Translations under genes and position numbers: made by a program
Source: a virus
Lineage: Duplodnaviria; Heunggongvirae; Uroviricota; Caudoviricetes
DNA: 38,200 nt
Virus record (IMG/VR): IMGVR_UViG_2703719355_000022
Location: 1-38,200 of that record
Direction: 5' to 3' (one strand)
Shown: in pieces, positions 1-38,200 of the stretch
Layout of the letters: each line of letters begins with the position of its first letter
Numbering within the stretch: the first letter of the stretch is position 1
Notes under the pieces: model-generated
What the model saw: the letters and a program-made list of their open reading frames with translations, nothing else
What the model was told of the DNA's origin: nothing
Database searches by the model: none

Positions 1-124
1 TATCGAATCGTAATTATGTGCAGATGATTCGGCAGTCTATATCAGTTGTTAAAAATGACAACTTTTCGTTAACTGTAATTAAACCATCACCAGCGATAAC
101 TCTTTGCCAAGCGCCTTTGCCGCA

Positions 125-159
<35 letters not shown>

Positions 160-234
160 GTTAAATAGGCGAGTAATCTCCTGTTTAGGTTTGCCTAATA
201 TAATGCCCCCACAATAACACGAGGGGGTACAACA

Positions 235-507
235 ATGAACATCGGTAAAGCAATCATCAACTACGCAGCACGTCGCAACATGGACATTACCTTGATTGAC
301 GATGAGACCGTGGCGTTCTGGGAAGCGGATAACGATTGTGAATGGATGTTCTCCTACATGATTGGTAATGATGGTTTCCTCCACTTTAAAGGGAATGTGT
401 ATCTGCCGCAGGATATTAAAGAAGAATTACCAGCGTGCATCGATACAGACAAGAAGCTGAAAGAAGTAATCAACTTTATCGCTAAAGAGTTTATCAGCAA
501 GAAGTAA
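235..507 (+). CDS. hypothetical protein (90 aa)
   Basis: ORF with ATG at 235 preceded by GAGGGGG ribosome-binding motif; no recognisable domain. Confidence 0.5.
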   Translation: MNIGKAIINYAARRNMDITLIDDETVAFWEADNDCEWMFSYMIGNDGFLHFKGNVYLPQDIKEELPACIDTDKKLKEVINFIAKEFISKK

Positions 508-944
508 TGTCTAATTTGGCGGGTACTATTCCCGCCGATTTAAACGGAATACAGACAATGTTCAATATTATGACTCGTAAATTTGGTGAGATGACTTTCG
601 AGAAAGCTGGTGTTGCTCGTACCGAAGAAGAAGCAATGGCCTTAGTTCTGGTAGCACTGAGATCATCAACTGAGATTATCGACGCTGAATATGTAGCCGC
701 AGAAGGTGAGATTAACGAGGTTAAAGCGGTGGCTAAGGAATTAGGTGTTAAAGGTTTCCGTAAGCTGAGACTATCCCGCGAGTCATATGTAATTGGTAAG
801 CAAGGACAATACCTAGATGAGAATACCGTGATTGTTCTACTGAATAAGATTACCCGCTACGGTTGGAAGATTGAGCAATATAAAACGTGTTTCGAATTAT
901 ACGAAAAAGGTTTGCTGGATACTCTGACCATCGTTCGCGCTTAA
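507..944 (+). CDS. hypothetical protein (145 aa; true start may be ATG at 558)
   Basis: ORF whose ATG overlaps the upstream TAA (TAATG); a hairpin repeat element covers the first codons so a downstream start is possible; no recognisable domain. Confidence 0.45.
   Translation: MSNLAGTIPADLNGIQTMFNIMTRKFGEMTFEKAGVARTEEEAMALVLVALRSSTEIIDAEYVAAEGEINEVKAVAKELGVKGFRKLRLSRESYVIGKQGQYLDENTVIVLLNKITRYGWKIEQYKTCFELYEKGLLDTLTIVRA
510..536 (+). repeat. intercistronic hairpin repeat copy 1 (TCTAATTTGGCGGGTACTATTCCCGCC)
   Basis: Stem GGCGGG/CCCGCC with 7-nt loop directly after the TAA of ORF 235-507; near-identical copy at 951-977. Confidence 0.6.
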
Positions 945-950
945 TTAATT

Positions 951-977
951 TCTAATTTGGTGGGTGTAATTCCCGCC
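951..977 (+). repeat. intercistronic hairpin repeat copy 2 (TCTAATTTGGTGGGTGTAATTCCCGCC)
   Basis: Same 27-nt element with stem GGTGGG/CCCGCC, located directly after the TAA of ORF 507-944. Confidence 0.6.
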
Positions 978-1073
978 CTATTCAACCATGAAATTATTAG
1001 AGCTACTTATTCTTAGCATTTTAGCGCGTTTTTTCTCGCTGTTTATATTGTTGTTATTGTTTAGGAGAATCAA

Positions 1074-1199
1074 ATGAAACAGTTTCATGATGGTATTTCA
1101 TCTAAGACATTCAAGAAAGAATATAGCGGAGCGTGTATTAACTGGAGTGATTTAATTGGAGCGGTTGTGTTTGGTCTGGTAATTAGCATTAACTTTTAA
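1074..1199 (+). CDS. small hydrophobic peptide (41 aa, MKQFHDGISSKTFKKEYSGACINWSDLIGAVVFGLVISINF)
   Basis: Not in the ORF track (below its size cutoff); ATG at 1074 with AGGAG 6 nt upstream; C-terminal hydrophobic stretch LIGAVVFGLVISINF; followed by hairpin plus T-run at 1214-1250. Confidence 0.4.
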   Translation: MKQFHDGISSKTFKKEYSGACINWSDLIGAVVFGLVISINF

Positions 1200-1213
1200 T
1201 CTTTAATCACCTA

Positions 1214-1250
1214 GCCCCTATCGTTATAATACGCGGTAGGGGCGTTTTTG
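1214..1250 (+). terminator. putative rho-independent terminator (stem GCCCCTA/TAGGGGC then TTTTT)
   Basis: Inverted repeat 1214-1220 / 1237-1243 followed by T-run 1245-1249; the loop is large so strength is uncertain. Confidence 0.45.
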
Positions 1251-1262
1251 TTTGGAAATGGT

Positions 1263-2942
1263 ATGAAAACTAAACTGTATTCGTATATTCGCTTCTCTTC
1301 AATGAAGCAAGCGGATGGTAGTTCTTATGAACGCCAAAAGAGAACAGCCGCAGAGATAGCCGCAAAATATGACCTTGAACTGGTTACAAGCTATCAGGAT
1401 TTTGGTGTATCTGCATTCAAAGGGGCTAACAGTAGAACAGGTGCATTATCTCGTTTTCTGGATGAGATTGGTCGATCTATTCCGGTTGGTAGCTGGCTGG
1501 TTGTGGAAAACTTGGACCGTATCTCTCGCCAATCCATCATTGAAGCACAAGAGCTATTTCTCTCGATTATCCGTAGGGGAATAACTATCGTAACTGGCAT
1601 GGATGGTAAGGTCTATAGCAAGGAATCGGTTAATGCCAATCCTATTGATTTGCTATTGAGTGTCATGTTGTTTGCGAGAGCTAACGAGGAAAGCCAGACT
1701 AAGCGCAATCGTACTAACTCAAGCGCACTGATTAAGATTAAAGCTCATCAAGAAAATCCACAAAATCCGGCTGTTGCAATCGAGGAAATTGGAAAGAATA
1801 TGTGGTGGACTGATACCACTTCCGGTTATGTGTGTCCCGATCCGGTCTTCTTCCCTATTGTTCAGGAGGTTGTGGAATTACGCAGGAATGGACGGTCTAC
1901 CGCCGAGATACTGGATCACCTTAACGCGACATATACACCACCACCAGCCGCAAGTCACAAGAGGCATTCAAACTGGTCACGAGCAATGATTGAAAGGTTG
2001 TTCCATACCCGCGCTTTGATTGGTATCAAGGAAATCTCTGTAGATGGCGTTAAGTATGAGTTAAAGGATTATTACCCTCGTGTGCTAGATGACGCTGAGT
2101 TTTATCACCTTAAGAAAAGCATTGGTGTTAGAGCATGTAACTATGGAGACAAAGAAGAAGCTAAACCGATCCCCCTGCTTAGTGGTGTTAATCTGCTGAA
2201 ATGTGAACATTGCGGTTCCGCTATGGTTAAGGTGAAAGGAACTAACAAACGTCCTAACCAATATCGTTATTCATGCGATGCAATGCGCTCTAGTCGTATT
2301 GCATGTGTGCATACAAACTGGAGTTTTCGAGGTGATCAATTAGAGAAAGCTGTATTGCAATTGCTGGCTGATAAAATCTGGATTGCTGAGGATAAGGCTA
2401 ATCCGGTTCCGGCTTTGAAAGTACAGATTGATGAAATATCACGCAAGATTGATAACCTGATTACCCTTTCTGCTATGACAGGAGCAACGAAGGAGTTAGC
2501 CGACCAGATTACTACCCTCAATAGCGAGCGTGAAACACTCTACAATCAGATTAAGATGGCAGAAGAGGAAATGTATTCTGTGGACTCTCAAGGCTGGGAG
2601 AAGCTCGCAGAATTTGATTTAGAAGATGTTTATAACGAGGATCGCATTAAGGTCCGGTTTAAGATTAAGCAAGCTCTAAAACGGATCGGGTGTAGCAGGA
2701 TTGACAAATACAAAAACTTGTTTGTACTGGAATACATTGATGGTAAGACCCAGAGAGTTGTAATAGAAAATTCAAGAGGACCGAGGAAAGGCCGGATCTT
2801 CGTTGATTTGAAGACCATCAATGATAGGCAGATTCTGGAGAGTAACGGGCTTGTTTTGCATCCATGTTTAGACATGCTGACAGATAAGAACTGGAAACCA
2901 GAAGAGGAAATACCAGGTCCATTACAGGAATTTGGAATTTAA
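1263..2942 (+). CDS. large serine recombinase (integrase/resolvase family)
   Basis: N-terminal resolvase-type catalytic motif YSYIRFSSMKQ...RQ, about 560 aa, Cys-rich zinc-ribbon-like segment CEHCGS...YRYSCDAMRSSRIACVH, C-terminal coiled coil; first ATG at 1263 (track start at 1248 is TTG). Confidence 0.85.
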   Translation: MKTKLYSYIRFSSMKQADGSSYERQKRTAAEIAAKYDLELVTSYQDFGVSAFKGANSRTGALSRFLDEIGRSIPVGSWLVVENLDRISRQSIIEAQELFLSIIRRGITIVTGMDGKVYSKESVNANPIDLLLSVMLFARANEESQTKRNRTNSSALIKIKAHQENPQNPAVAIEEIGKNMWWTDTTSGYVCPDPVFFPIVQEVVELRRNGRSTAEILDHLNATYTPPPAASHKRHSNWSRAMIERLFHTRALIGIKEISVDGVKYELKDYYPRVLDDAEFYHLKKSIGVRACNYGDKEEAKPIPLLSGVNLLKCEHCGSAMVKVKGTNKRPNQYRYSCDAMRSSRIACVHTNWSFRGDQLEKAVLQLLADKIWIAEDKANPVPALKVQIDEISRKIDNLITLSAMTGATKELADQITTLNSERETLYNQIKMAEEEMYSVDSQGWEKLAEFDLEDVYNEDRIKVRFKIKQALKRIGCSRIDKYKNLFVLEYIDGKTQRVVIENSRGPRKGRIFVDLKTINDRQILESNGLVLHPCLDMLTDKNWKPEEEIPGPLQEFGI

Positions 2943-2978
2943 GCGGCCTAAATCGACGTATAACGAGCTAAAACAGTT

Positions 2979-3008
2979 AAGGGGTACAGATGTACCCCTT
3001 TTTAATTT
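2979..3008 (+). terminator. rho-independent terminator after the recombinase gene
   Basis: GGGGTAC-AGAT-GTACCCC hairpin followed by TTTTTAATTT. Confidence 0.65.
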
Positions 3009-3218
3009 AATTGCGTTAGGCAGCGTAAGCAAGTTTCATAGTAGTTTCCTCTAAAATAATAAGTTCACTACTATTTATCAGAGAAAATTGTCTTACTATT
3101 GCATTCTCTATCTGGATGTGGGTATAGGCGGGATTGAATACGGCAAAACTGAAACATTCCACTACTGCAATAAATCACTAAACAATATAAAGAATATTGC
3201 AAGTGTGGAGTGGAACTA

Positions 3219-4709
3219 ATGCAAGATATTAAAATTCATTTTCAAGATTACAGTTTCGTTAAGGTTGATTGCTCTCCTTCTATCGGAATGGAATTAAGAG
3301 ATTATTTCTCGTTTGAGGTTGAAGGGGCTAGGTTTAGCCCCCGTTACAAGTATTCTGGCTGGGATGGACGAATAAGACTGTTTACGCATGAAAACACCCT
3401 ACCAATTGGACTATTAAAAACGTTGGGTGTCTTTGTTAAAAATATGGGCTATTCAGTCTGGATTGACCCGCGATTGCTTGAGAAGGAAGATGTAACCAAA
3501 GACGCGATTAATGAATGGATTGATTCCCTAGAAGTGTATTCCGGTTCCAATAAAATCAATCCTTACTGGTATCAGCGTGAAGCAGTCTTTCTGGGTATTC
3601 ATAATCGCCGTAGAATGCTGGTTCTTCCTACCAGTGCCGGAAAGTCATTGATTGCTTGTATGCTGTCTCGCTGGTACTTAGAGCATTACACCGGAAAAAT
3701 TCTAATCATTGTTCCGACTACATCGCTAGTGGTTCAAATGAGGGATGATTTCATCGATTATAGGCTATTCCCTTATGAAGCAATTCATACAATGATGAGT
3801 GGTAGCGGGAAACATCCGGGAGATAGGCTAATCACTGTTTCAACATGGCAATCAGCTTGCAAGATGCCTCCTGAATGGTTCCGACAATATGGAATGTTGA
3901 TAGTTGATGAATCACATAAGGCTAGTGCCAAAAATATTACCAATATCATCAATGGAATGAATCATTGCCAGTTCAAAATCGGTATGACTGGTTCCCCGAA
4001 AGAATCAAAATGCCATTTAATGCAGTATGTCGGGCTTTTCGGTGATATTTCTAAGATCGTTAGCATTGACCGCCTGATGGAAGAAGGTCAAGTGACGAAA
4101 CTGAAAATCAACTGTCTTTTCCTTCGTTATACCGATGAGGAATGTAGCGCGGTTAAGGGTAGAGAATATGCGGAAGAGATCAAGTATATTACGTCTAACC
4201 CACGACGTAATAAGTTTGCTTGTAATTTGGCGCTAAAACTCGCTAAGAAGGGCGAAAACGTATTCCTGATGTTCCGCAATACTAAGCACGGAAAACTTAT
4301 GTATGATGCGTTACAGAAGGTACACGACAAGGTTTATTATATTGACGGTGGAGTTAAGACAGAAGAACGAGACGAGTTCAAAAAATTAGCGGAAGGGGAA
4401 ACAGGGATCATTTGCGTTGCATCCTATGGTGTGTTCTCTACTGGTGTTTCTATCAAGAACTTGCACCATGTTATTTTCGGGCATCCAGTTAAAGAATCAA
4501 CCATTGTTAGACAGAGTATCGGTCGTGCATTGCGCAAACATGGTTCTAAGGATATTGCTACCGTTTGGGATCTTATAGATCATCTGTGTATATTCGGTCG
4601 TAACGGAAAAATCAAGCATAAAAATTATGCGGTAAAACATGCACTTGAGAGAATCCGCTATTATTTGACCGACAAGTTCAGCTATGCAACTAAAACAATT
4701 GCTATATAA
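3219..4709 (+). CDS. uvsW: UvsW-like superfamily-2 DNA helicase
   Basis: N-terminus MQDIKIHFQDYSFVKVDCS...GWDGRIRL and motifs LVLPTSAGKS (Walker A-like), IVDESH (DExH), VASYGVFSTG, WDLIDH match my recollection of T4 UvsW along the whole length; ATG at 3219 with GGAG upstream. Confidence 0.85.
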   Translation: MQDIKIHFQDYSFVKVDCSPSIGMELRDYFSFEVEGARFSPRYKYSGWDGRIRLFTHENTLPIGLLKTLGVFVKNMGYSVWIDPRLLEKEDVTKDAINEWIDSLEVYSGSNKINPYWYQREAVFLGIHNRRRMLVLPTSAGKSLIACMLSRWYLEHYTGKILIIVPTTSLVVQMRDDFIDYRLFPYEAIHTMMSGSGKHPGDRLITVSTWQSACKMPPEWFRQYGMLIVDESHKASAKNITNIINGMNHCQFKIGMTGSPKESKCHLMQYVGLFGDISKIVSIDRLMEEGQVTKLKINCLFLRYTDEECSAVKGREYAEEIKYITSNPRRNKFACNLALKLAKKGENVFLMFRNTKHGKLMYDALQKVHDKVYYIDGGVKTEERDEFKKLAEGETGIICVASYGVFSTGVSIKNLHHVIFGHPVKESTIVRQSIGRALRKHGSKDIATVWDLIDHLCIFGRNGKIKHKNYAVKHALERIRYYLTDKFSYATKTIAI

Positions 4710-4744
4710 CAAAAAAAGCGCCCACTAGAGGCGCTTTAATTTTA
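4710..4744. terminator. bidirectional rho-independent terminator between convergent helicase and endolysin genes
   Basis: AGCGCC-7 nt loop-GGCGCT hairpin flanked by an A-run upstream and a T-rich run downstream. Confidence 0.6.
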
Positions 4745-5095
4745 TCCATGCCAGCGTGATTTTTTTGACCTGCTGTCGATGTGTGTAAAGGTTTTATATT
4801 TGCCTAAGCCGTATTGATTAGGATATTTCCCGTCAAGATAAGCATGGACAATATCAGGCGAGACGCCTTTCACTACAATATCAACCGCACGGCCTCGAAC
4901 ATGGTAGCTATTGGTTGCACCGCCTACATTCTTGTTATGAGTCGGACAACGGTTCCCGCTGTTAATAATTACTGGTTTCCCGAAGTGTTCGCGTACATCC
5001 TCAAGAATTACCAGCAGTTCAGCGTCGATAGTATCATAATCACATTTTCCGCATTTACATTTAAATTCCTTGCGAGAAAAATGCTTGCTTAACAT
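4742..5095 (-). CDS. peptidase M15-family cell-wall hydrolase (putative endolysin)
   Basis: Motifs HFSRKEF, SGNRCPTHN, SYHVRGRAVD and FTHID typical of zinc D-Ala-D-Ala carboxypeptidase-like phage lysins; first ATG at 5095 preceded by AAGGGGG (track start at 5131 is TTG). Confidence 0.6.
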   Translation of the reverse strand: MLSKHFSRKEFKCKCGKCDYDTIDAELLVILEDVREHFGKPVIINSGNRCPTHNKNVGGATNSYHVRGRAVDIVVKGVSPDIVHAYLDGKYPNQYGLGKYKTFTHIDSRSKKSRWHG

Positions 5096-5105
5096 ATTAC
5101 CCCCT

Positions 5106-5453
5106 TTAGATGTATTGCATAAGATACCCAATAAATCTGAGTCCCTTAATGTAATAAGGTGCTGTGCCTATGCATACCGCTCGTGCATCACCAATACAAT
5201 TGAAGTTGTAAGGGTTAACTACATCAATCTCCTGCCCTACACGGAAGCGGTATTTAGGACGTTTAGCGAGTGTCGCAACACAAAACACTAACCCATTACC
5301 ATCATCGCGGATCATTTGCTTGAATTGTTTATGCTTTACTCTCTTCGCCTCGTAATCAAGTGTCATTGATTCAGGGCTAATGCCATTGATAAAAATACCG
5401 GAAAGCTGGTCGACCGGATAAGTAGGAAATTCAGTGAAAATATTTTTAGCCAT
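5106..5453 (-). CDS. hypothetical protein (115 aa)
   Basis: ORF with GGGGG ribosome-binding motif 5 nt upstream of the ATG; no recognised domain. Confidence 0.45.
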   Translation of the reverse strand: MAKNIFTEFPTYPVDQLSGIFINGISPESMTLDYEAKRVKHKQFKQMIRDDGNGLVFCVATLAKRPKYRFRVGQEIDVVNPYNFNCIGDARAVCIGTAPYYIKGLRFIGYLMQYI

Positions 5454-5491
5454 GTTATACCCCCATAAGATTCTATGAGGGTATTTATGGA

Positions 5492-6097
5492 TTAAACGAA
5501 GTTGATTTTACCCATGAAGTGCTTTTTCATCTTCTTCTGGATATTCTTCTTCATCGTTTTCTCATTATCTTTCCAACTACCCATGATGTTACTACGGTCT
5601 GTTTTCTTCAACACTGCAACAAGTCGCTTCCCTAGCTTTTTCTTGTTCTTCATGTCGGCTTTAACGGATGGATCGAGAAGCAGTATTTTACCAGTCTTAG
5701 ATTTTGTGGTTACATACTTCCCTATTTTCTTACCGTTTCTGAGTTGTGGAATGTTACCAAACTGGTTAGTTCGGTCATCAGTTACAGGAACAAATTTCTC
5801 AATATTATTACCACCTTCAAAGTAATATTTTAAGTATTTTTCCTGATTCTTCATGATGAAAACACTATGGTAAGACGTTTTACCGCTTGAGCGTATCCGG
5901 TTGTATGAATTGACCGCTTTCTGTGTGAACTTGGTCGGTCGATCTATCCTTGAATTGACTTTCTTCTGCAACTTTACCCGCTCATCTATGACCGCTAAAC
6001 CCAAATCCCTATGAAAGCTATTACTAGCTTTCTGTTTCCAACTCTTGATATCTTTTTTTACTTTATCAATATTGGATGTGATTATTGGATTAGCCAT
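5492..6097 (-). CDS. hypothetical lysine-rich basic protein (201 aa)
   Basis: ORF with AGGGGG ribosome-binding motif; very Lys-rich composition; function unknown. Confidence 0.45.
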   Translation of the reverse strand: MANPIITSNIDKVKKDIKSWKQKASNSFHRDLGLAVIDERVKLQKKVNSRIDRPTKFTQKAVNSYNRIRSSGKTSYHSVFIMKNQEKYLKYYFEGGNNIEKFVPVTDDRTNQFGNIPQLRNGKKIGKYVTTKSKTGKILLLDPSVKADMKNKKKLGKRLVAVLKKTDRSNIMGSWKDNEKTMKKNIQKKMKKHFMGKINFV

Positions 6098-11574: not shown

Positions 11575-12170
11575 TATACATTCTCCACTAATTCAAATTT
11601 CATCTTGCCAATCTGGGCGATGTTCCAATCGATGTTTTCAGTAGTGAGAAGAAATTCACCTTCAACGTTCTGATACTTGATCACCTCACCCGCTAGGACG
11701 TTCTGACGCAAGTTAGGGAAGAGTTTCATTTCACCACCTGATTTCACGTCTTCGGTGATCGTGTAGATTTTCTTGTGGTTCTCAAACTGGATGATAGTTC
11801 CCGCTTTCAGTGTTCCGGTGAAGTTGGAGAGTCTCACCTTACGCCCACCGCGAGCAGTACCAGCAGCAGCCGTAACCATCTGGCGTACATCACCTGTATA
11901 TTTTGAAAAGTAAGACAGCGGAACAGTGAACGGACGACCAAAAAGGTGACGTGCTACAAATTCTTTTACTTCGTTAATATCCTGAGCCATGAAATTAGCT
12001 GTAAATTCTGCTTCATAGTAATGAATACCAGTAAAGCGACGCTGGAACTTACCAGAAATGGATTGCGCCTTGAAGAAAGGTTGTTTTGATTTAAGAGTAA
12101 AATCTGTGATTTTAATATTCTTGGATTTGAACATAGAAAAAGCCCCCATAGTTTTATGATTATTTATCAC
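11574..12170 (-). CDS. minor tail protein (distal tail, lambda M-like position), 198 aa
   Basis: First gene after the tape measure gene; size and position only. Confidence 0.4.
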   Translation of the reverse strand: MINNHKTMGAFSMFKSKNIKITDFTLKSKQPFFKAQSISGKFQRRFTGIHYYEAEFTANFMAQDINEVKEFVARHLFGRPFTVPLSYFSKYTGDVRQMVTAAAGTARGGRKVRLSNFTGTLKAGTIIQFENHKKIYTITEDVKSGGEMKLFPNLRQNVLAGEVIKYQNVEGEFLLTTENIDWNIAQIGKMKFELVENV

Positions 12171-12185
12171 TATGGGGGCTTTTAA

Positions 12186-14705
12186 TTACATTCTACGACG
12201 CTGGGCGTCTTCTACTGCTTGGGCAACAAGTTTCGGATGGCGTTTAATCGCTTCCATTACCATTGCATCAGAGCTATTAACGTTACCGCTAATTTGCAAA
12301 GGAGCATGTACCTCAATCGGCTGAGAGTTACCAGTGTTACCGGATTTCTGGTTAGCTAAGAAGTCTTTCAGATCGCCGTTAGTACGATCATCAACAACTC
12401 GTTCCCCTTTCTGTAACAGCCATGTACCCTCACGCGGGATGTTATCAATACCGTCATGCGCCATACCGTCAACAGAGATTGATTTCATCTGCGCAACACG
12501 AGCGATTGCAGAAGCATAGCTAGCAGCACCCATCGCAACACCCAACGGTCCAGGATACTTAGCCATAGCCTTAGTTGCGGCTTCGTGTGCGTTCATCATA
12601 CCCATTGCGATAGAAACGCCTTTCTGTGCTGCAAATAGTCCCTTAGTAACAGCGTTATTCTCTAAGCCAAATGCTTGTAACGCCTCACCAAATCCACCGA
12701 ACATATCCTGTGTATCTTGCAAGCGCATGTTATTGTATTTTAAGTCAATTTCACGCATTTTCTTTTGATGCGCTTCATTGAGTGCTTGCAGTGCTTTAAA
12801 TTGTTCAGCTTGAGGCAGTTTATCAATGTTGGCTTTATGGGTAGCGTAATCAGCATTAGCATTATCAACATCAACGGCTTTCATCTCGTCAATAGTCTGA
12901 TCACGTTCACCGAAGGAGTTAGCTAGACCACGAGATTTGATTTCTTGTAGTCCATCGGTCGCACCAGTACGGCCTTTGTAAGCATCTTCAATACGCTGTT
13001 TTTCTGCCAGATAATCCGCTAATTTGATGTTTTTATTCTGGTAGTTTTCTTCCAGATCTTTAAGGCTTTGTTCATAAACCTGTTTAGAAGCAGCCAACAT
13101 TTGCAGGGCTTCCATTGGATTTGCACCTAATACAGATTTACGGAAGTTTTCCGCGTTAGCATTAATTAGCTGGCGTCGTTTCTCTTCGTATTGTTCTTGC
13201 GTGATAATACCCTGTTTAAGAGCGTTATCTAACTTAGCAAGGTTTTCGGTAATCTGACGGTTAGAAGACGCCACAGCAGCTTGTGACGAGCTATACAAAG
13301 AGATATTGATGGCCTTCAAATCATTGTAGGCTTTTTCTCTTAATTTTTTGGCTTCGTCTGCGGCTTTCTTCGCTGCATCTTTAGCTTTCTTGGTTTCTGG
13401 ACAATCTGCGGCTGAATGCGCACCTTGCTTACATACAGGGCAAAGAGATTGAACACGGCGTTTATTCTCTTCTTCCTGTTTCTTTTTCAGTTCATCGGCT
13501 TGTGTTTGCAGTTCAGCAGCTTTGCGTTTGCGTTCTTGTTCTGCTAGATCTTCGAAGCTGGTTGCAGCACCGTTACTAACACCGCTTGCGATGGCTTCCT
13601 CTACCGCATCACCTAATCCTTGAGCGCCTTTCTTGATGTTATCGGTAGTCAATGCTGGGATTTCAAAATCAAGAAAATCGGCATCAGCACCAAACCAGCC
13701 AGCAATAGTTTTACCACCCTTGCGGATCGCATTCTGTACTTTAGCGATAATCTCGGCTAGTTTGTTGTACAGATTAATCATTGTTTCCTGTACAGTTTTA
13801 ACCGTCTTGATTATCGGGTTAATTGCTGTAAGTAGAGCATCCTTAGCTTTCTGGAATAACGGCGGGAGATTTTCGGTCACAAACTTACTAATAGCTTTCA
13901 TACTCAAATAGAAAGTAGTATTAGTAAAATCCTTGTTGAAATAATCATAGATTAAGTTGAATCCTTTCGGGAGGAACGAAAATACATCCGCGAAAGCACC
14001 CATTACCGTTTTACCTAAAGCGGTCAAATTAGAACTTGCGTTTGAATACGCGGTCGCTGTTTCTTCTGAGACATAAGCGGCTTGTTGTTGGAGCTTAACT
14101 TGATGTTCCCAATAGTCGTTTGATTCAGACAAAGCACCGATCATCTTACTGGAATCAGAAGCAATTCGTTCCATACCCGCGATAATTTCAGAATGGCTTA
14201 GTCCTGCGGCTTTAGCTTGGTAATACCACATTTCAGCAGCTTTGCGACCGCCTTCTGGATCATCGGTAAAGGCTGCATAATCCTTGATATCGCCTTTGAT
14301 CATTTTAAGCGCGGCTTGAAATTCCCCTGTGCCGTCTCGCCATGCTTCACCTAGTTTCTCGGCTGCATCCTTGTTAATATCAAGAACTTTTTCAGCATTC
14401 AGACCAAAGCCACTATAGACTTTTTCCATCTTCTGAATTTGTTCGATATTAACGCCAAATTCTTTCGACATATTGGCATATTCGATAGCCATTTTTGCGC
14501 CACCAGCAGCAAGGGCAGTAAGAGCACCCAAAGCAGCACCAGCAGCCATCCCCAATGGACCCAGCTTACCTAACAATCCACTGATAGAGCCAGTTAAATT
14601 ACCGACACCACCGGAGGCAAGACCATCAAGAATACCACTTGCTTTATCTGCGGCAGATTCAAGACCACCAGTAACGCCAGTAATATCAAATCTTAATTCT
14701 GACAT
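12186..14705 (-). CDS. tail tape measure protein, 839 aa
   Basis: Long Ala/Gly/Gln/Lys-rich predicted coiled-coil protein between chaperone-like and minor tail genes; AAGAGGT ribosome-binding motif. Confidence 0.85.
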   Translation of the reverse strand: MSELRFDITGVTGGLESAADKASGILDGLASGGVGNLTGSISGLLGKLGPLGMAAGAALGALTALAAGGAKMAIEYANMSKEFGVNIEQIQKMEKVYSGFGLNAEKVLDINKDAAEKLGEAWRDGTGEFQAALKMIKGDIKDYAAFTDDPEGGRKAAEMWYYQAKAAGLSHSEIIAGMERIASDSSKMIGALSESNDYWEHQVKLQQQAAYVSEETATAYSNASSNLTALGKTVMGAFADVFSFLPKGFNLIYDYFNKDFTNTTFYLSMKAISKFVTENLPPLFQKAKDALLTAINPIIKTVKTVQETMINLYNKLAEIIAKVQNAIRKGGKTIAGWFGADADFLDFEIPALTTDNIKKGAQGLGDAVEEAIASGVSNGAATSFEDLAEQERKRKAAELQTQADELKKKQEEENKRRVQSLCPVCKQGAHSAADCPETKKAKDAAKKAADEAKKLREKAYNDLKAINISLYSSSQAAVASSNRQITENLAKLDNALKQGIITQEQYEEKRRQLINANAENFRKSVLGANPMEALQMLAASKQVYEQSLKDLEENYQNKNIKLADYLAEKQRIEDAYKGRTGATDGLQEIKSRGLANSFGERDQTIDEMKAVDVDNANADYATHKANIDKLPQAEQFKALQALNEAHQKKMREIDLKYNNMRLQDTQDMFGGFGEALQAFGLENNAVTKGLFAAQKGVSIAMGMMNAHEAATKAMAKYPGPLGVAMGAASYASAIARVAQMKSISVDGMAHDGIDNIPREGTWLLQKGERVVDDRTNGDLKDFLANQKSGNTGNSQPIEVHAPLQISGNVNSSDAMVMEAIKRHPKLVAQAVEDAQRRRM

Positions 14706-22119: not shown

Positions 22120-24192
22120 TCAATCGCTTTTTTTCTGGACTACGGTCAGTGCGCTATGGTCCATAACAGCCCAATCCAAATCAGCCCATACACGGAAGTA
22201 CAGGTTGCCAGCCGCGCGACCTGTGGTGTCGTCGCAATCCAGTTCCAGCGATCCGAAGTCCGCAATTGCCAGAGAGCTAAAGTCACCAAACAGCATCGTA
22301 TCCTGAGCAATTACACCAGAGCCATAGATCGGACGGTTAACCAGTTTATCACCTTCTACCAGGAAGCCCGGAACGTTAGCGGCTTTCAGTTGCGCTGAAA
22401 GTTCAGCTTTAATAACACCACGAGTAGCAAATGCCAGATCAGATTCGTTAAAACCTTTGTCTGTTTGTTCAGCAACCAGTTTCAGGAACTCGGCATAGGT
22501 CCAATCAATCTGTTTAACTTTGCCAGCGTCGGTCAGGATCTTAGTCAGACCATCACGAGCGTTAGTGTTAGCAGCATTGGACAGGATCGCTTTTTCCAGA
22601 GCGATAGCACTGTGTTTCAGCATGTGCTCACCAACGATAGCACCGATGTTAGGCAGAGTGATAGCAGCCTGACGAGTTACAGGAACAATTCCATTGAATG
22701 TCTTAAGAGTCATCGGCTGTGCTGCAAACTTGATAGTACCTTCACCAGCGGATTGACCTTCTGCAACAAAACCGAAGTTTTCCAGATTGCTGGAAGTCAG
22801 AGACGGCAGAGATACCGGACCAGTTGCGTTAATGGTACGCACGCCCAATTTGCCCAGAATAGAACGTTCCATGATCATATCAACGAAGCAATCATGGCGG
22901 ATTTCTTCACCAACTACAGGTTTCAGAGATTCCATGTTCTGGCTAGCACGCAGAGCGGACGCCGGAATGAATACGGAGTTAGAACGCTGTGCACGACCAC
23001 GCGCTGCGGCTTTACGTGCTTCTTCCTGAGAATATTCAGCTTCTGCGCCAGTCAGTGCTTTACCCTCTGCGATTGCACGTACAGCTTTATTAAGATCGAA
23101 ACGAGATTCCAGAGTTTTAATGGTATCGGTCATGGTAATTTTTCCTTTAACAAAAGTTTTAGATTCGGTAGTATTTAGTGCGCGTGCTTTTTCTTTAAAA
23201 TTTTCAATAGTCACGGCACTATCTTTAATTGCGGCTTCAATTACGTCTTCGGAGATATTTAGATGTTTTCCGATAGCACGAATTTCGGCGGTATCTTCGC
23301 GAGAACGTTCAAACGGTTTTTCTTCGTCTTCAATCTTTTCTTCTTCGACTGGTTCGGATGTATTTTCCGTTTCGTCGTTCTCGTCTGTATCTTTATTTAG
23401 TTCTTCTGTTTCTTCCGGTTTAATTTCTTCTTCCGGTTCATCTTCGGAACGTTCTTCTTTTTCTTCTGGCGTTACTTCTTGCGGGTTTTCCACATCTTCG
23501 CCACTGTCAGCACTATTTCCAGAATCGGAATCAATTTCTTCATTTTCCTGTTCCTCTTTCTCTTCTTCGGAACGTTTTTCTTCATCTTCCGGTTTAATTT
23601 CTTCTACCGGAGTGTCTTTAATTTCGTCTTCCACTTGTTCACCCTCCAAAACAATCATTTCGTTGTCTGTATTTAGAGAGCGTCCAACACCCGCGTTAAA
23701 TGGATCTGCGGCACACGTTACAAGACTGCATTCGAAAGGTTGCCAGCGTGTAACGTAATAGATCCCTTTGTTAAAATCGGCTTTGCCATCAAGAACGTTA
23801 TAACCGACGCTAACTTGTGAAAGTGTTCCCTCTTTTACCTTCTCAAAGCATTCATTAGCCAGTTGGCCTACTTTGGAGAATTGGACAAGGCAACGACCTA
23901 CACGGTCTTCGTCAATACGAGCGGAGCCAGGAACAATCTTGCCGATATGAAGGTCCAGATTGTGATTAAACAGAAGACTTGCGTTAGTCTCGTTTAAAAC
24001 GGATAGATCAACCGCTGATTCATCGTGTACGAGAATCTCTTTTAATTCGACTTGCTCGCCGTCCTGATTCATGTAATAACGTGTATAAGGAGCCTCGCTT
24101 GAGAAAGCCAATTCAATAATTCGTTCGTCTTTTTCTTCGATAAAATCAGGGGTATCTACCGCAACACTACGACGGAATTGTTTTGTTGTCAT
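22120..24192 (-). CDS. prohead protease / acidic scaffold-like linker / HK97-fold major capsid protein fusion, 690 aa
   Basis: N-terminal ~170 aa resemble HK97-type prohead protease (LSQVSVGYNVLDG...WQPFECSLVTCAADPFNA); ~150-aa Glu-rich linker with internal repeats; C-terminal ~350 aa with HK97-fold capsid-like motifs (GNLYFRVWADLDWAV); ends in TGA. Confidence 0.8.
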   Translation of the reverse strand: MTTKQFRRSVAVDTPDFIEEKDERIIELAFSSEAPYTRYYMNQDGEQVELKEILVHDESAVDLSVLNETNASLLFNHNLDLHIGKIVPGSARIDEDRVGRCLVQFSKVGQLANECFEKVKEGTLSQVSVGYNVLDGKADFNKGIYYVTRWQPFECSLVTCAADPFNAGVGRSLNTDNEMIVLEGEQVEDEIKDTPVEEIKPEDEEKRSEEEKEEQENEEIDSDSGNSADSGEDVENPQEVTPEEKEERSEDEPEEEIKPEETEELNKDTDENDETENTSEPVEEEKIEDEEKPFERSREDTAEIRAIGKHLNISEDVIEAAIKDSAVTIENFKEKARALNTTESKTFVKGKITMTDTIKTLESRFDLNKAVRAIAEGKALTGAEAEYSQEEARKAAARGRAQRSNSVFIPASALRASQNMESLKPVVGEEIRHDCFVDMIMERSILGKLGVRTINATGPVSLPSLTSSNLENFGFVAEGQSAGEGTIKFAAQPMTLKTFNGIVPVTRQAAITLPNIGAIVGEHMLKHSAIALEKAILSNAANTNARDGLTKILTDAGKVKQIDWTYAEFLKLVAEQTDKGFNESDLAFATRGVIKAELSAQLKAANVPGFLVEGDKLVNRPIYGSGVIAQDTMLFGDFSSLAIADFGSLELDCDDTTGRAAGNLYFRVWADLDWAVMDHSALTVVQKKSD

Positions 24193-28924: not shown

Positions 28925-28959
28925 TATTGAGAAATCACTATTGTTTGGAGGAAACTACT

Positions 28960-29187
28960 ATGACTACTAAAGCTACTCGCGGTCGCCCTGCCCGTTTTAA
29001 CGCTGAACAGATGGCTGATATTGCCTACGCTTACTATACAGCGGATCGTGGTAAGGAAGCGAAAGAACAGATTCTTAGTGAACATGGGATCTCAATCGCC
29101 CAATTCTATAAGAATATGAAGAAGTTAGACATTAAATTCTATGTTCAGATCGGTGATGGTCAGATCGTAGAAGCAACAGGTTTTTGA
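28960..29187 (+). CDS. small DNA-binding protein with N-terminal GRP motif resembling small-terminase N-terminal domains, 75 aa
   Basis: GGAGG 7 nt upstream of ATG at 28960; N-terminus TRGRPARFNAEQMADI resembles the GRPxxYxPE start of some small-terminase DNA-binding domains; too short for a complete small terminase. Confidence 0.4.
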   Translation: MTTKATRGRPARFNAEQMADIAYAYYTADRGKEAKEQILSEHGISIAQFYKNMKKLDIKFYVQIGDGQIVEATGF

Positions 29188-29987: not shown

Positions 29988-30860
29988 TTAAATTCCAAAG
30001 TGTTCCAGCGATCCGACGTTCTTACGAATCAGTGCGGCAGTATTATTGACGATTGCACGAGCATTGTTAGGCTGCGGTAATTTCAAAGTTGCTCGTTGTT
30101 CTTCTTCAATCAATCCCAATTTAACCAGCACAGGTAAACAGTCAGTTGTGAACTCAAGCTGACCATGTGCTGATTGTCGAGCGTACATGTAAGCAGGAGG
30201 AAGAACATCATAGCCGTTAGGCTTACCAGAAGCATCCAGACGACGCTCAATGTGTTTAGCCTCACACAATCCCTTAAGAATCATTTGTACCTTTGTAGAG
30301 CCTCGTTTTTCGCCCAATAAACGGGTTAAGCTGTGTGCATCAATAGCTTTACGAACATGGAGATCAACTAATTGTTGATTCTCGTGAAGCAATTGTTCTT
30401 TTTCTTCTTCAAGTTTAACCGCTTCGCGCATCCAGTCGAGCTTAGTCATCTTGCTTGCGTCTGGGAACGGATTAGCTTCTTTGTTTGCCAATTCTGTTAG
30501 TAAACGTGCGTTTTCTTCTTTCAGAATCTTCCATTCTTTAATTACACGATTACGAATCGGAGTGCTATATCCAGTGACAAGAGTCATGCAAAGTTCTTCA
30601 TTCAAATGACATACCGGATCTTTAACAACGATACCTAAGCCATTGATTTTCTCCACAAATCCAAAATTGGATTCCTGAGAAATACCCAATTCTTTATACA
30701 TCACGCGAATATCACGCAATACATGACAGTGTTTCTTTCCGGTAAACTCGGCAATCTGGAAAGAAGACATAGTTAATTCTTTTTCTACAGAGTCATTTGC
30801 AGCAACCAGAGACACAGAAGCAGTTTTAACAGCGGTATTCATTACAGAAATAGCATTCAT
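29988..30860 (-). CDS. Rha-family phage regulatory protein (antirepressor-like)
   Basis: N-terminal LTMSSFQIAEFTGKKHCHVLRDIR resembles the Rha signature; start assigned to ATG at 30860 with AAAGGGG upstream (track start at 30917 is GTG). Confidence 0.6.
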   Translation of the reverse strand: MNAISVMNTAVKTASVSLVAANDSVEKELTMSSFQIAEFTGKKHCHVLRDIRVMYKELGISQESNFGFVEKINGLGIVVKDPVCHLNEELCMTLVTGYSTPIRNRVIKEWKILKEENARLLTELANKEANPFPDASKMTKLDWMREAVKLEEEKEQLLHENQQLVDLHVRKAIDAHSLTRLLGEKRGSTKVQMILKGLCEAKHIERRLDASGKPNGYDVLPPAYMYARQSAHGQLEFTTDCLPVLVKLGLIEEEQRATLKLPQPNNARAIVNNTAALIRKNVGSLEHFGI

Positions 30861-30947
30861 AATTAAGTTCCCCTTTCGGTTTAGTGATATTGATCCTCCT
30901 AGTTCCGGCATCACCACCGGAACATTTTTATTTATGATAGAAATTTA

Positions 30948-31868: not shown

Positions 31869-32153
31869 AGTGGAAATCCTCTAAAAGAAAGTGAATCAAT
31901 CTAATATTATTTATAAAGAGAAAATTCTTGTTATTATGGAAAGAGTGGTCTGGTAGAGTCCAAAACTGGTCTGTACTTGAAAGGTGATTGGATTCAGTCG
32001 GGCTAGCCCTCCTTCATAGATTTGATTAAATCATCACCAAAACGAAGAAGTATCTTTATAATATAAGAATCTTTCTTTTGTAGAAATAATAATCGAACAA
32101 GATGGACGCTCCCTGAGCGTCTGCGAAGCATATCTAATTCCTTCCAGTATCAT

Positions 32154-32242
32154 CAAAGTGATCTAGAATCAGTTTGTTTTAAAGTGATTGTAATACCTTT
32201 ATCTTGGAAGTGATTTAACTACCATCTTCAAAGTGATCTTGA
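32154..32242 (+). repeat. four direct copies of AAGTGAT(Y)T spaced 24-26 bp
   Basis: GTGAT cores at 32158, 32184, 32209, 32233; outer copies are the near-identical 19-mers TCAAAGTGATCT(A/T)GAATCA. Confidence 0.6.
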
Positions 32243-32316
32243 ATCATCATGTTAAAATCCCTTCCTGAATGATTCGAAGCAGATTACTCGCGCCCCGCAG
32301 GGCGCATAATATCTTT

Positions 32317-32354
32317 GTAGGTATATTGGTTTGATGGTATGTAGGTATATTGGT
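32317..32354 (+). repeat. direct repeat GTAGGTATATTGGT x2 (24-bp period)
   Basis: Identical 14-mers at 32317-32330 and 32341-32354; preceded by palindrome GCGCCC-CGCA-GGGCGC at 32290-32305. Confidence 0.6.
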
Positions 32355-32408
32355 CTGTAGGTCTGGATCGCTTCTAAGCCCCGTCATTACTGGTTTCCCC
32401 ACTTTGAA

Positions 32409-32662
32409 ACGGGGACGGGAAAGAGACGGGGAAGGGATACCACGGGGACAGGTCGGGGATAACATGGGGATGATACGGGGACACCACGGGGAAAGCATTT
32501 AAAATCATATCCTTACATAAGAATACGCATCTAATACCGGGGATTTTACGCGGGGATGGCGGGGAAACTACCCTAATCCGGGGGATTTTGCTTCCAAAAC
32601 GGGGATGAACGCGGGGACGGTGACGGGGATACATCTTCTAAAGTGGGGATATCGCGGGGAAA
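32409..32662 (+). repeat. G-rich array of at least 16 same-orientation CGGGGA motifs, first seven largely phased at 11 bp
   Basis: GGGGA starts at 32411, 32428, 32444, 32455, 32466, 32477, 32488, 32539, 32552, 32561, 32581, 32601, 32613, 32625, 32645, 32656; flanked downstream by an AT-rich stretch. Confidence 0.8.
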
Positions 32663-32865
32663 CCTTTAAATTCATTCAAATATTTTGATAGAAAATTCTT
32701 GTATATTATTTAACCAAAAAATCATCAAAAATCGCTGTAACTTAATGATTTAAAAGGGATTATCAAAAGGTCGCCGTGCTATAATAGGTTATAAAGGTTG
32801 ATAATCATTATTCGCCATTTTCACACAAAAATTTTGATAGCCTTTTCTCGCTTGGGTCAAGTGTG

Positions 32866-32894
32866 TTGACTTCTGTCAAGGATTATTTTATACT
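32866..32894 (+). promoter_or_regulatory. sigma70-type promoter (TTGACT-17-TATACT) reading into the plus-strand early genes
   Basis: -35 at 32866-32871, -10 at 32889-32894; flanked by GTCAA/TTGAC half-sites at 32856-32879. Confidence 0.55.
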
Positions 32895-33029
32895 TTTTCT
32901 CGTTGGTAGGGGTTGAAATTTTCAAAACAGTCCCCATATAGATGATAAGCAAGATTTTCTCTCTACTAAATACATGTGAGAAATGATTGTTCACTTCTGA
33001 AAATCTCCTGATTCACTGTTAATTAATAC

Positions 33030-33058
33030 AGCACTGGTTAGATATACAGTGCTTTTTT
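33030..33058 (+). terminator. hairpin plus T-run (AGCACTG-N10-CAGTGCT-TTTTTT); terminator or attenuator
   Basis: 7-bp stem followed by six T; a similar hairpin CCACTG-N11-CAGTGG-TTTT at 33117-33145. Confidence 0.5.
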
Positions 33059-33236
33059 GGTTGAATAATGTACGAATTGATTAATTATTAATCTTCTCTT
33101 TAGCAATTCGTGCTCCCACTGATCGGATATACAGTGGTTTTACAGGGTTTTCTGAAATGACTTTTATAAATAGAAGTATCAAGGGCGAAAAGCTCTTTTT
33201 ATGAGAAAAAATAATCCACATTGTAGAGGATGTAAC

Positions 33237-37969: not shown

Positions 37970-38200
37970 ATGACCAAAGAAGAATTTTTGAAGCTGTCCG
38001 TTAAAGAGCAGAAGTCACTGGTTAACACCATGCTTAGTGAGCGTGGCTGGAAGCTGGTTGAAACAGAAGAGTATGGAACTGATTGGCATCAACGGATCAT
38101 GATCATCAATACTGGTGGTGATGAATGGCGTGATTGGTGTCTTCGTACTGTTACCCCGCTTTCCCTTGTTACTGGCGTTGGCTTTCTGGAAAGAGAGTAA
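37970..38200 (+). CDS. hypothetical small protein, 76 aa
   Basis: ATG at 37970 with GAGGAA upstream; stop TAA at the last three bases of the window. Confidence 0.4.
   Translation: MTKEEFLKLSVKEQKSLVNTMLSERGWKLVETEEYGTDWHQRIMIINTGGDEWRDWCLRTVTPLSLVTGVGFLERE

Follow-up and report, generated by a model that had tools for sequence, protein, structure and literature searches.

The DNA analysed here is a stretch of 38,200 nucleotides (positions 1 to 38,200 of IMG/VR virus record IMGVR_UViG_2703719355_000022), referred to below as the window. Near its left end lies a gene for a large serine recombinase (LSR), preceded by small open reading frames (ORFs) at 235-507, 507-944 and 1074-1199 that have no Pfam match and followed by a gene for a UvsW-type helicase (Table 1). 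A preliminary description of the same DNA had reported this arrangement correctly, with a serine recombinase of ~560 aa placed between small unknown genes and a UvsW-like helicase. The gene belongs to a prophage that interrupts the antitoxin gene hicB of the E. coli chromosome. Our overall reading, to which we assign a probability of about 0.88, is that the 559-aa recombinase is the integrase of this prophage and acts at hicB through a crossover at a TT dinucleotide.

The recombinase gene and its product

The recombinase ORF was listed as 1248-2942 on the plus strand, with 564 aa read from a TTG codon. Translation probably starts at the ATG at 1263, giving a protein of 559 aa that begins MKTKLYSYIRFSS...; we chose this codon because the resulting length and full coverage agree with more than 50 database homologues of 559 aa, which are 86-99% identical to the window recombinase and match its length and ends. 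Three Pfam domains exceed their curated cut-offs: Resolvase (PF00239, residues 6-153, E 9e-15), Recombinase (PF07508, residues 198-286, E 1e-7, 32 bits against a cut-off of 21) and Zn_ribbon_recom (PF13408, residues 310-368, E 3e-9). In PHROGs, the protein is assigned to phrog_95, 'integrase' (E 1e-55), with a weak secondary match to phrog_125, 'DNA invertase' (E 2e-11). Residue conservation was judged on alignments of 12 and 27 homologues. The residues of the R-x-S-x-x-x-Q motif (R10, S12 and Q16) and D85, R86 and R89 are invariant across the 27 homologues, down to 34% identity, and the four zinc ligands C314, C317, C338 and C348 are likewise invariant. The ratio of nonsynonymous to synonymous substitution rates (dN/dS) is 0.02-0.28 in every domain, indicating that the gene is under purifying selection and that its function has been maintained.

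A PDB sequence search with the protein returned a single match, the catalytic-domain entry 3guv; a fold search was needed to reach the integrases of known structure. For this we used an AlphaFold2 (AF2) model of the 559-aa protein, which has a mean predicted local distance difference test score of 78. When the model was compared with the PDB using Foldseek, the top 17 matches, all with E <= 0.001, were large serine integrases. The best were the SPbeta and PhiC31 integrases, with full-length alignments and E values of 2e-13 to 7e-13, followed by those of LI, TG1 and Bxb1. The protein has a resolvase-type catalytic domain with the nucleophilic serine and the conserved arginine and aspartate residues, a recombinase domain (RD) after a long helix E, and a four-cysteine zinc ribbon domain (ZD) that carries an embedded coiled-coil in the predicted structure. 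No tyrosine integrase domain (PF00589) was detected in it or in any other window ORF scanned. Together with the junctions described below, sequence comparison strongly supports the view that it is indeed the large serine integrase of a prophage of E. coli and an undescribed member of a well-known enzyme family.

The traits of this family are well established: a characteristic domain order, a gene beside the attachment (att) site, short dyad att sites and intragenic insertion. The window protein has the same domain order (catalytic domain, helix E, RD, zinc ribbon with coiled-coil) as the integrases of A118/LI (inserting in comK), SPbeta (SprA, inserting in spsM), PhiC31, Bxb1 and TG1, and the solved structures of the SPbeta, PhiC31, LI, TG1 and Bxb1 enzymes match its predicted fold. 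As with other phage large serine integrases, its gene sits at the prophage end beside att, and the att sites are short imperfect dyads around a 2-bp crossover that split a host ORF. The protein nonetheless shares just 12-17% sequence identity with the SPbeta, PhiC31, LI, TG1 and Bxb1 integrases and differs from them in an extra C-terminal extension of ~110 residues (440-559); those enzymes come from Firmicutes and Actinobacteria hosts, whereas the window integrase comes from E. coli and Salmonella. Its closest homologues in isolated phages are the YbcK-type recombinases of the lambdoid E. coli phages 4A7, Perceval and D2 and the serine recombinases of the Burkholderia phages Bcep176 (gp53), JC1 and Bcep22; all of them have the same three domains but are very distant, with 28-31% identity over 80-85% of the window protein. 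The YbcK-like genes are probably not the integrase in lambdoid phages, whereas the window gene abuts an att site and is the sole integrase detected.

The junction in hicB and the attachment sites

Bases 1 to ~192 of the window are E. coli chromosome, and the prophage begins there. A hicB stop codon lies at 79-81, the 37 C-terminal residues of the antitoxin HicB (...GKPKQEITRLFNLHHATKIDAVQLAAKALGKELSLVMV) are encoded by positions 82-192 (minus strand), and the translation of a minus-strand ORF at 79-384 finishes in the HicB C-terminus. Positions 120-195 equal the K-12 hicB region save for two positions, and positions 1-195 equal the left junction of ETEC4085 save for three. In ETEC4085, ydcR and a hicB fragment annotated by RefSeq as 'missing N-terminus' are followed by the same small genes and the recombinase and, after these, by an endolysin gene and tail genes; a second hicB fragment, 'missing C-terminus', is found with hicA 35.7 kb beyond the left half. 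Likewise, in RMDEC332, whose LSR is 99% identical to that of the window, the halves of hicB are 40.4 kb apart, and this copy contains IS911. K-12 keeps the hicB site intact and empty. At the right end, according to the alignment with RMDEC332, only 3 nt of the window follow the last phage gene, and attR of the window copy is predicted ~90 nt beyond base 38200. The halves of hicB and the right-end alignment indicate that the window is an almost complete integrated prophage and not a free phage genome. The element is a temperate siphovirus-type prophage of ~38 kb that fills almost the whole window.

In all of the copies examined, the integrase gene starts 1.07 kb in from the end of the prophage, and no other recombinase was found between the two junctions among the window ORFs scanned with Pfam and PHROGs. 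The same scans bear out the statement in the preliminary description that no repressor or second integrase could be recognized, since neither a CI-type repressor nor a tyrosine integrase was detected among the ORFs scanned. Its remark that the window shows no lysogeny module does not hold: the host/prophage junction at ~191-195, inside hicB, had been overlooked. It had also named the absence of integrated copies from any host genome as the outcome that would speak against an integrase, but the window is itself integrated and relatives are present in 57 of 5426 complete E. coli genomes.

The att sites were derived by comparing the attL and attR junctions with the empty K-12 attB, and all are given in window orientation. 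The hicB attB reads CTCCTGTTTAGGT-TT-GCCAATTCGCCTGGC and the window attL ...TTTAGGT-TT-GCCTAATATAATGCCCCCACAATAAC..., while attR reads GGGTTGACTACATTCGGG-TT-GCCAATTCGCC in ETEC4085 and GGGGTTTACAACATTTAGGT-TT-GCCAATTCGCC in RMDEC332. Reconstructed from the closest relative, attP of the window variant would be ...TTTACAACATTTAGGT-TT-GCCTAATATAATGCCCCCAC..., and the attP junctions predicted for an excised form are ...ACATTTAGGT-TT-GCCTAATATAATG... or ...ACATTCGGG-TT-GCCAAATATCATG.... In the reconstructed attP, the imperfect dyad TTAGGn-TT-nCCTAA surrounds the TT. The sites are thus short imperfect dyads with a 2-bp crossover, attL and attR are simple attP-attB hybrids, and there is no target duplication longer than TT at the junctions.

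Comparison of the variants makes TT, at 191-192 of the window, the probable crossover. In the related prophage of 14EC007, which splits ycdX, the stretch where attL and attR both still match attB is exactly TT. The attL variants at hicB differ in the three bases after TT (GCC, CCC or CAC), as expected if those bases derive from the phage, and in a third group of relatives, inserted in codB, attL departs from attB immediately after TT. The junctions are also reproducible: five metagenome contigs carry an identical hicB attR and three a ycdX attR, all identical at the crossover, and the exact 90-aa protein encoded beside attL is indexed in 495 blocks of an assembly collection and adjoins ydcR/hicB in 10/10 of the places shown. 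The catalogue of LSRs with predicted att sites by Durrant et al. 2022 (PMC10083194), which has E. coli elements among its sources, is built on the same inference, from attL/attR and the empty attB to attP and attB. The att and protein strings of the window do not occur in the supplements of that catalogue that were examined, a set that is possibly incomplete. In the literature searched, we found no paper naming hicB, ycdX or codB as a prophage or serine-integrase target.

We next consider how integration might proceed. After infection, the phage genome would circularise, and a dimer of the serine integrase would bind attP while a second dimer binds attB within hicB. The synapsed tetramer would cut both sites at the central TT with a 2-nt stagger, using Ser12, and one half-site pair would rotate by 180 degrees before religation to yield attL (~165-232) and attR (~90 nt past the right end). 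This cut-rotate-religate chemistry is carried over from established knowledge of serine integrases, and the window copy is presumed to be active. By analogy with the family, the enzyme is predicted to recombine attP with attB unidirectionally, and excision would require a cognate, phage-encoded directionality factor. The small upstream proteins, the 90-aa protein among them, may include this factor, as the preliminary description proposed.

The position of the insertion suggests an effect on the host gene. In K-12 HicB, residues 3-67 form the antitoxin domain and residues 88-134 an HTH_3 domain. The upstream hicB fragment of a lysogen reads ...ARRIGKPK, followed by five phage-derived codons and a stop, indicating that the helix-turn-helix (HTH) domain is cut between its helices and that the toxin-binding domain is retained. 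It is plausible from these reading frames that lysogens have lost hicAB autoregulation and retained toxin neutralisation.

Relatives are present in about 1% of the complete E. coli genomes, always on the chromosome, and also occur in Salmonella. When positions 1-6000 of the window were used as a megablast query, 5410 of the 5426 genomes matched some part, but only in a few dozen did the match extend beyond a small part, and in 8 it covered at least 80% of the query; nearly all of the matches are chromosomal. A genome-contig search with the single integrase protein gave no matches, and the same search with an alignment found, in other genera, only relatives of 31-40% identity and one fragment of 83 residues that matches at 53%. 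In the complete genomes of E. coli BS74R-D (NZ_CP063332.1) and UTME-9 (NZ_CP157110.1), the integrase gene is present twice, at separate places on the chromosome, and these strains may be double lysogens with prophages of different integration specificity.

Target choice and alternative roles of the recombinase

Related prophages split either ycdX (in 14EC007, PSJ-22 and FDAARGOS_1267, and in Salmonella) or codB. We compared domain identities to the window protein for the integrases with a known junction, which comprise 10 at hicB, 2 at ycdX and 3 at codB. The ten hicB-site LSRs are 97-100% identical to the window protein in the RD and 96-100% in the ZD, and each has one of two catalytic-domain alleles (100% or 79% identical), with a synonymous divergence (dS) of ~1.4 between the alleles. 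For the two ycdX-site LSRs, identity is 85% in the RD and 83% in the ZD. The three codB-site LSRs have the catalytic-domain allele of the window protein (96% identical), but identity falls to 59% in the RD and 67% in the ZD. Furthermore, 31 of the 35 alignment columns that fully separate the hicB from the ycdX types fall within residues 176-351. The LSR is encoded by the element that it integrates, and its RD/ZD alleles correlate with the target; that the RD and ZD co-vary with the site and the catalytic domain does not is as expected if the integrase chooses the site. We infer from these alignments that the RD and ZD determine which target is used and that the catalytic domain assorts independently.

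In FDAARGOS_1267, the ycdX fragment beside attL (3640-3780 of the retrieved locus) is only ~80% like the ycdX of E. coli and Salmonella, while, further out, ycdY, ycdZ and csgG have the annotation of normal E. coli proteins, which suggests that the prophage came with a piece of foreign flanking DNA.

A more far-reaching proposal is that the lineage forms a natural retargeting series, in which exchange or divergence of the RD/ZD module alone has moved integration among three unrelated E. coli genes, hicB, ycdX and codB, while attP stayed nearly unchanged and catalytic domains assorted freely, and that insertion in the HicB HTH constitutes a reversible switch of hicAB. As a whole this proposal is doubtful. 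If the switch is real, lysogens would lose hicAB autoregulation and keep a toxin-neutralising HicB stub, and excision would restore the gene.

Several observations weigh against the reading of the 559-aa protein as an integrase acting at hicB through the TT. The attP and attB of the window variant share 12 bp (TTTAGGTTTGCC), so the TT is placed solely by homology with the other variants and not by the window's own junctions, and the attR of the window copy falls outside the window. An attP junction, as expected from excised or free phage, was absent from IMG/VR in pattern scans with both P-arm types, from JGI metagenome contigs, where a scan with the ETEC-type P arm gave attR junctions and unrelated chance matches, and from PLSDB; assembly look-ups of E. 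coli copies show integration at hicB and no attP. The IMG/VR loci that encode the LSR are prophage predictions trimmed at gene starts, which are uninformative on attP. Moreover, no directionality factor was identified, no repressor was recognized among the window ORFs scanned, insertion sequence (IS) elements interrupt some copies in other genomes, and no INPHARED isolate is related at the DNA level apart from uvsW and tail-fibre genes like those of Krischvirus. We infer present-day mobility of the lineage from the diversity of its targets, hosts and cargo, and have not observed it.

One alternative is that the recombinase once integrated the prophage but this copy is now inactive, the element being a grounded, defective remnant that spreads only vertically or by homologous recombination of its flanks. 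The absence of an attP form from the collections searched (IMG/VR, JGI metagenome and PLSDB) would fit such a remnant, as would the lack of an isolated phage relative and of recognisable repressor or replication genes, the IS insertions in several copies, and the diverged ycdX fragment of FDAARGOS_1267, which hints at transfer with flanking DNA. However, the LSR ORF is intact, its catalytic and zinc-ligand residues are present, and dN/dS is low throughout. The structural, packaging and lysis modules are complete, three target genes are used with matching changes in the DNA-binding domains, and the hosts include both E. coli and Salmonella. Cargo and tail fibres differ between prophage copies, and two complete genomes hold two copies of the gene. 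Given these features, we consider a defective remnant unlikely.

The preliminary description had allowed for an integrase, a concatemer resolvase or an invertase. Of these, the integrase is favored by the integrated copies, by the junctions and by the RD and ZD tracking the target. As a resolvase of phage genome multimers or concatemers, the enzyme would act at an adjacent site, such as the hairpin at 1214-1243 described below, and something else would integrate the phage. In favor of this role, the protein has a resolvase-type N-terminal domain, the inverted repeat directly upstream of the gene is conserved, and the nearest isolated-phage homologues (YbcK-like, ~31% identity) occur in lambdoid phages, which generally use a separate tyrosine integrase. 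Against this, there is no other integrase in the ORFs scanned, with only ~90 nt of prophage outside the window, and the gene sits at the prophage end with an RD and ZD that co-vary with the integration target. Tn3-family resolvases use a multi-subsite res arrangement, whereas the repeat is a single terminator-like hairpin that is the same across targets. A resolvase is therefore very improbable. Still less credible is a role as a DNA invertase in the switching of host-range or tail-fibre genes. The phage has T4-type gp37-like tail-fibre genes and the LSR gives the secondary PHROGs match noted above, but its 559 aa with RD, ZD and coiled-coil are unlike Gin, Hin, Cin and Pin (small serine invertases of ~190 aa with a C-terminal HTH and inverted sites around an invertible segment), no second att arm or convincing long inverted repeat brackets any segment of the window, and a distance of 8 kb separates the gene from those for the fibres.

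With the integrase reading, an unexplained recombinase becomes part of a defined integration system that comprises the integrase, attL as found in the window, attP and attB as reconstructed, and a TT dinucleotide as the probable crossover. This places a defined att system in E. coli, a Gram-negative model host in which serine integrases have been little studied. The three natural specificity variants, which differ mainly in residues 176-351, provide a compact data set on how the RD and ZD read DNA, the central problem in re-engineering serine integrases for genome insertion. The prophage also represents an undescribed temperate phage lineage that occurs in ~1% of complete E. coli genomes and disrupts a chromosomal antitoxin by inactivating its DNA-binding domain. 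Nothing in the finding challenges current understanding.

Other features of the prophage

Table 1. Features at the left end of the window, with domain positions given as residues of the 559-aa protein
Feature	Position	Strand	Basis or remark
Host chromosome: ydcR-hicB spacer and 3' fragment of hicB	1-190	-	ORF translation; comparison with K-12 and ETEC4085
attL	~165-232 (outer limits approximate)	+	Comparison with K-12 attB and with attR of ETEC4085 and RMDEC332
attL B arm	~165-190		Ends ...CTCCTGTTTAGGT
Probable central dinucleotide TT	191-192		Homology with other variants
attL phage P' arm	193-~232		GCCTAATATAATGCCCCCACAATAACACGAGGGGG
90-aa protein, phrog_6147 (unknown function)	235-507	+	First prophage gene beside attL in hicB- and ycdX-type relatives
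145-aa protein, phrog_14908 (unknown function)	507-944	+	Conserved in hicB-, ycdX- and codB-type prophages
41-aa ORF	1074-1199	+	Variable slot just upstream of integrase cassette
Hairpin and T-run in integrase leader, terminator-like	1214-1253	+	Terminator scan, folding, conservation
Large serine recombinase (integrase) gene, 559 aa	1263-2942	+	Pfam, alignments, AF2 model, Foldseek, dN/dS
Catalytic domain	residues ~1-150		R10, S12, Q16, D85, R86, R89
Helix E, long	residues 127-164		AF2 model
Recombinase domain (RD)	residues ~170-300		Mixed alpha/beta in AF2 model
Zinc ribbon (ZD)	residues ~305-375		C314, C317, C338, C348
Coiled-coil	residues 382-437		Two long antiparallel helices predicted, 382-406 and 410-437 (AF2)
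C-terminal extension	residues 440-559		No Pfam match
Intrinsic-terminator-like hairpin closing the integrase transcription unit	2979-3006	+	Terminator scan; dG -14.5, z -3.4, 0/200 shuffles as good
UvsW-type helicase, downstream of integrase	3210-4709		UvsW_N, E 1e-34

Two inverted repeats flanking the integrase gene had been put forward as candidate recombination sites. Both repeats exist, but the actual attL lies 1.07 kb upstream of the gene, outside the interval 1214-3218 to which that proposal referred. The first, the GCCCCTA...TAGGGGC repeat at 1214-1243, forms a stem of 11 bp, 7 of them GC pairs, after which comes GTTTTTGTTT; it folds with a dG of -20.5 kcal/mol (z -2.8) and is terminator-like in a terminator scan. 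The hairpin stands directly upstream of the LSR gene in 35 of the 36 relatives retrieved, whatever gene precedes it, in both hicB- and ycdX-type elements, and is identical in the variants that target these two genes. In the 36th relative, RMDEC332, its left arm is replaced, and IS911 is annotated just upstream. We rejected this repeat as an att site given its terminator-like form with a T-run, its sameness across targets and the position of the real junction at 191-195. It belongs to the integrase cassette and probably insulates it from upstream transcription. A perfect TATAAT at 1225-1230, in the loop of the hairpin, could on a speculative view be a -10 element.

The second repeat, CATAGTAGT-N21-ACTACTATT at ~3040-3080, was rejected as a recombination site; its z score is -1.1, and 29 of 200 shuffled sequences fold equally well. 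A 20-nt sequence resembling a ribosome-binding site plus a start codon, TTTGGAGGAAACTACTATGA, occurs twice in the window with 95% identity, at 3036-3055 (minus strand) and 28944-28963 (plus strand). The copy at 3036-3055 heads an ORF of 7 codons only and appears to be what remains of a minus-strand gene that has been deleted; this would account for one arm of the 3040-3080 repeat.

Among the small upstream genes, homologues of the 145-aa protein open the codB-type element, and the slot of the 41-aa ORF is occupied in relatives by other genes (of 139 aa or 81 aa, or IS911). Another variable slot separates the integrase from the endolysin; in relatives it is either empty or filled by a GIY-YIG nuclease, a 185-aa ORF and uvsW, sometimes with uvsY. 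The uvsW gene has up to 87% nucleotide identity to uvsW of the T4-like Krischvirus phages (RB49, JSE and ECD7); apart from the gene described next, the element otherwise has no relation to these phages. The tail-fibre gene at 11764-14439 has ~74-80% nucleotide identity to the Krischvirus gene for the long-tail-fibre distal subunit gp37 (Phi1, ECD7 and RB49), and relatives also carry a gp38-like 'receptor-recognizing protein'. The tail-fibre block is apparently a second block exchanged between this temperate siphovirus-type prophage and virulent T4-like phages.

The capsid gene at 22120-24192 encodes 690 aa that match both major-head and head-maturation-protease families, and the product appears to be a protease-capsid fusion. 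The best terminase match, at 45% identity, is to phage DCP80 (141 kb). The early/regulatory region, 28-38 kb, consists almost wholly of ORFans, and neither a repressor nor a replication protein could be recognized in it. Among the ORFs scanned, a Rha/Ant-like protein at 29988-30917 is the sole regulator recognized, and two ORFs of 337 and 333 aa at 33.5-35.6 kb match nothing in Pfam or PHROGs. An Rfam scan of the whole window found no family at gathering score. Within a gap at ~31900-33200, a 1.3-kb stretch that has no convincing ORFs, ~15-20 CGGGGA motifs are arrayed at 32405-32660 with a spacing of ~11 bp, or one helical turn. This array could represent origin iterons, or a binding array for terminase or a partition protein.

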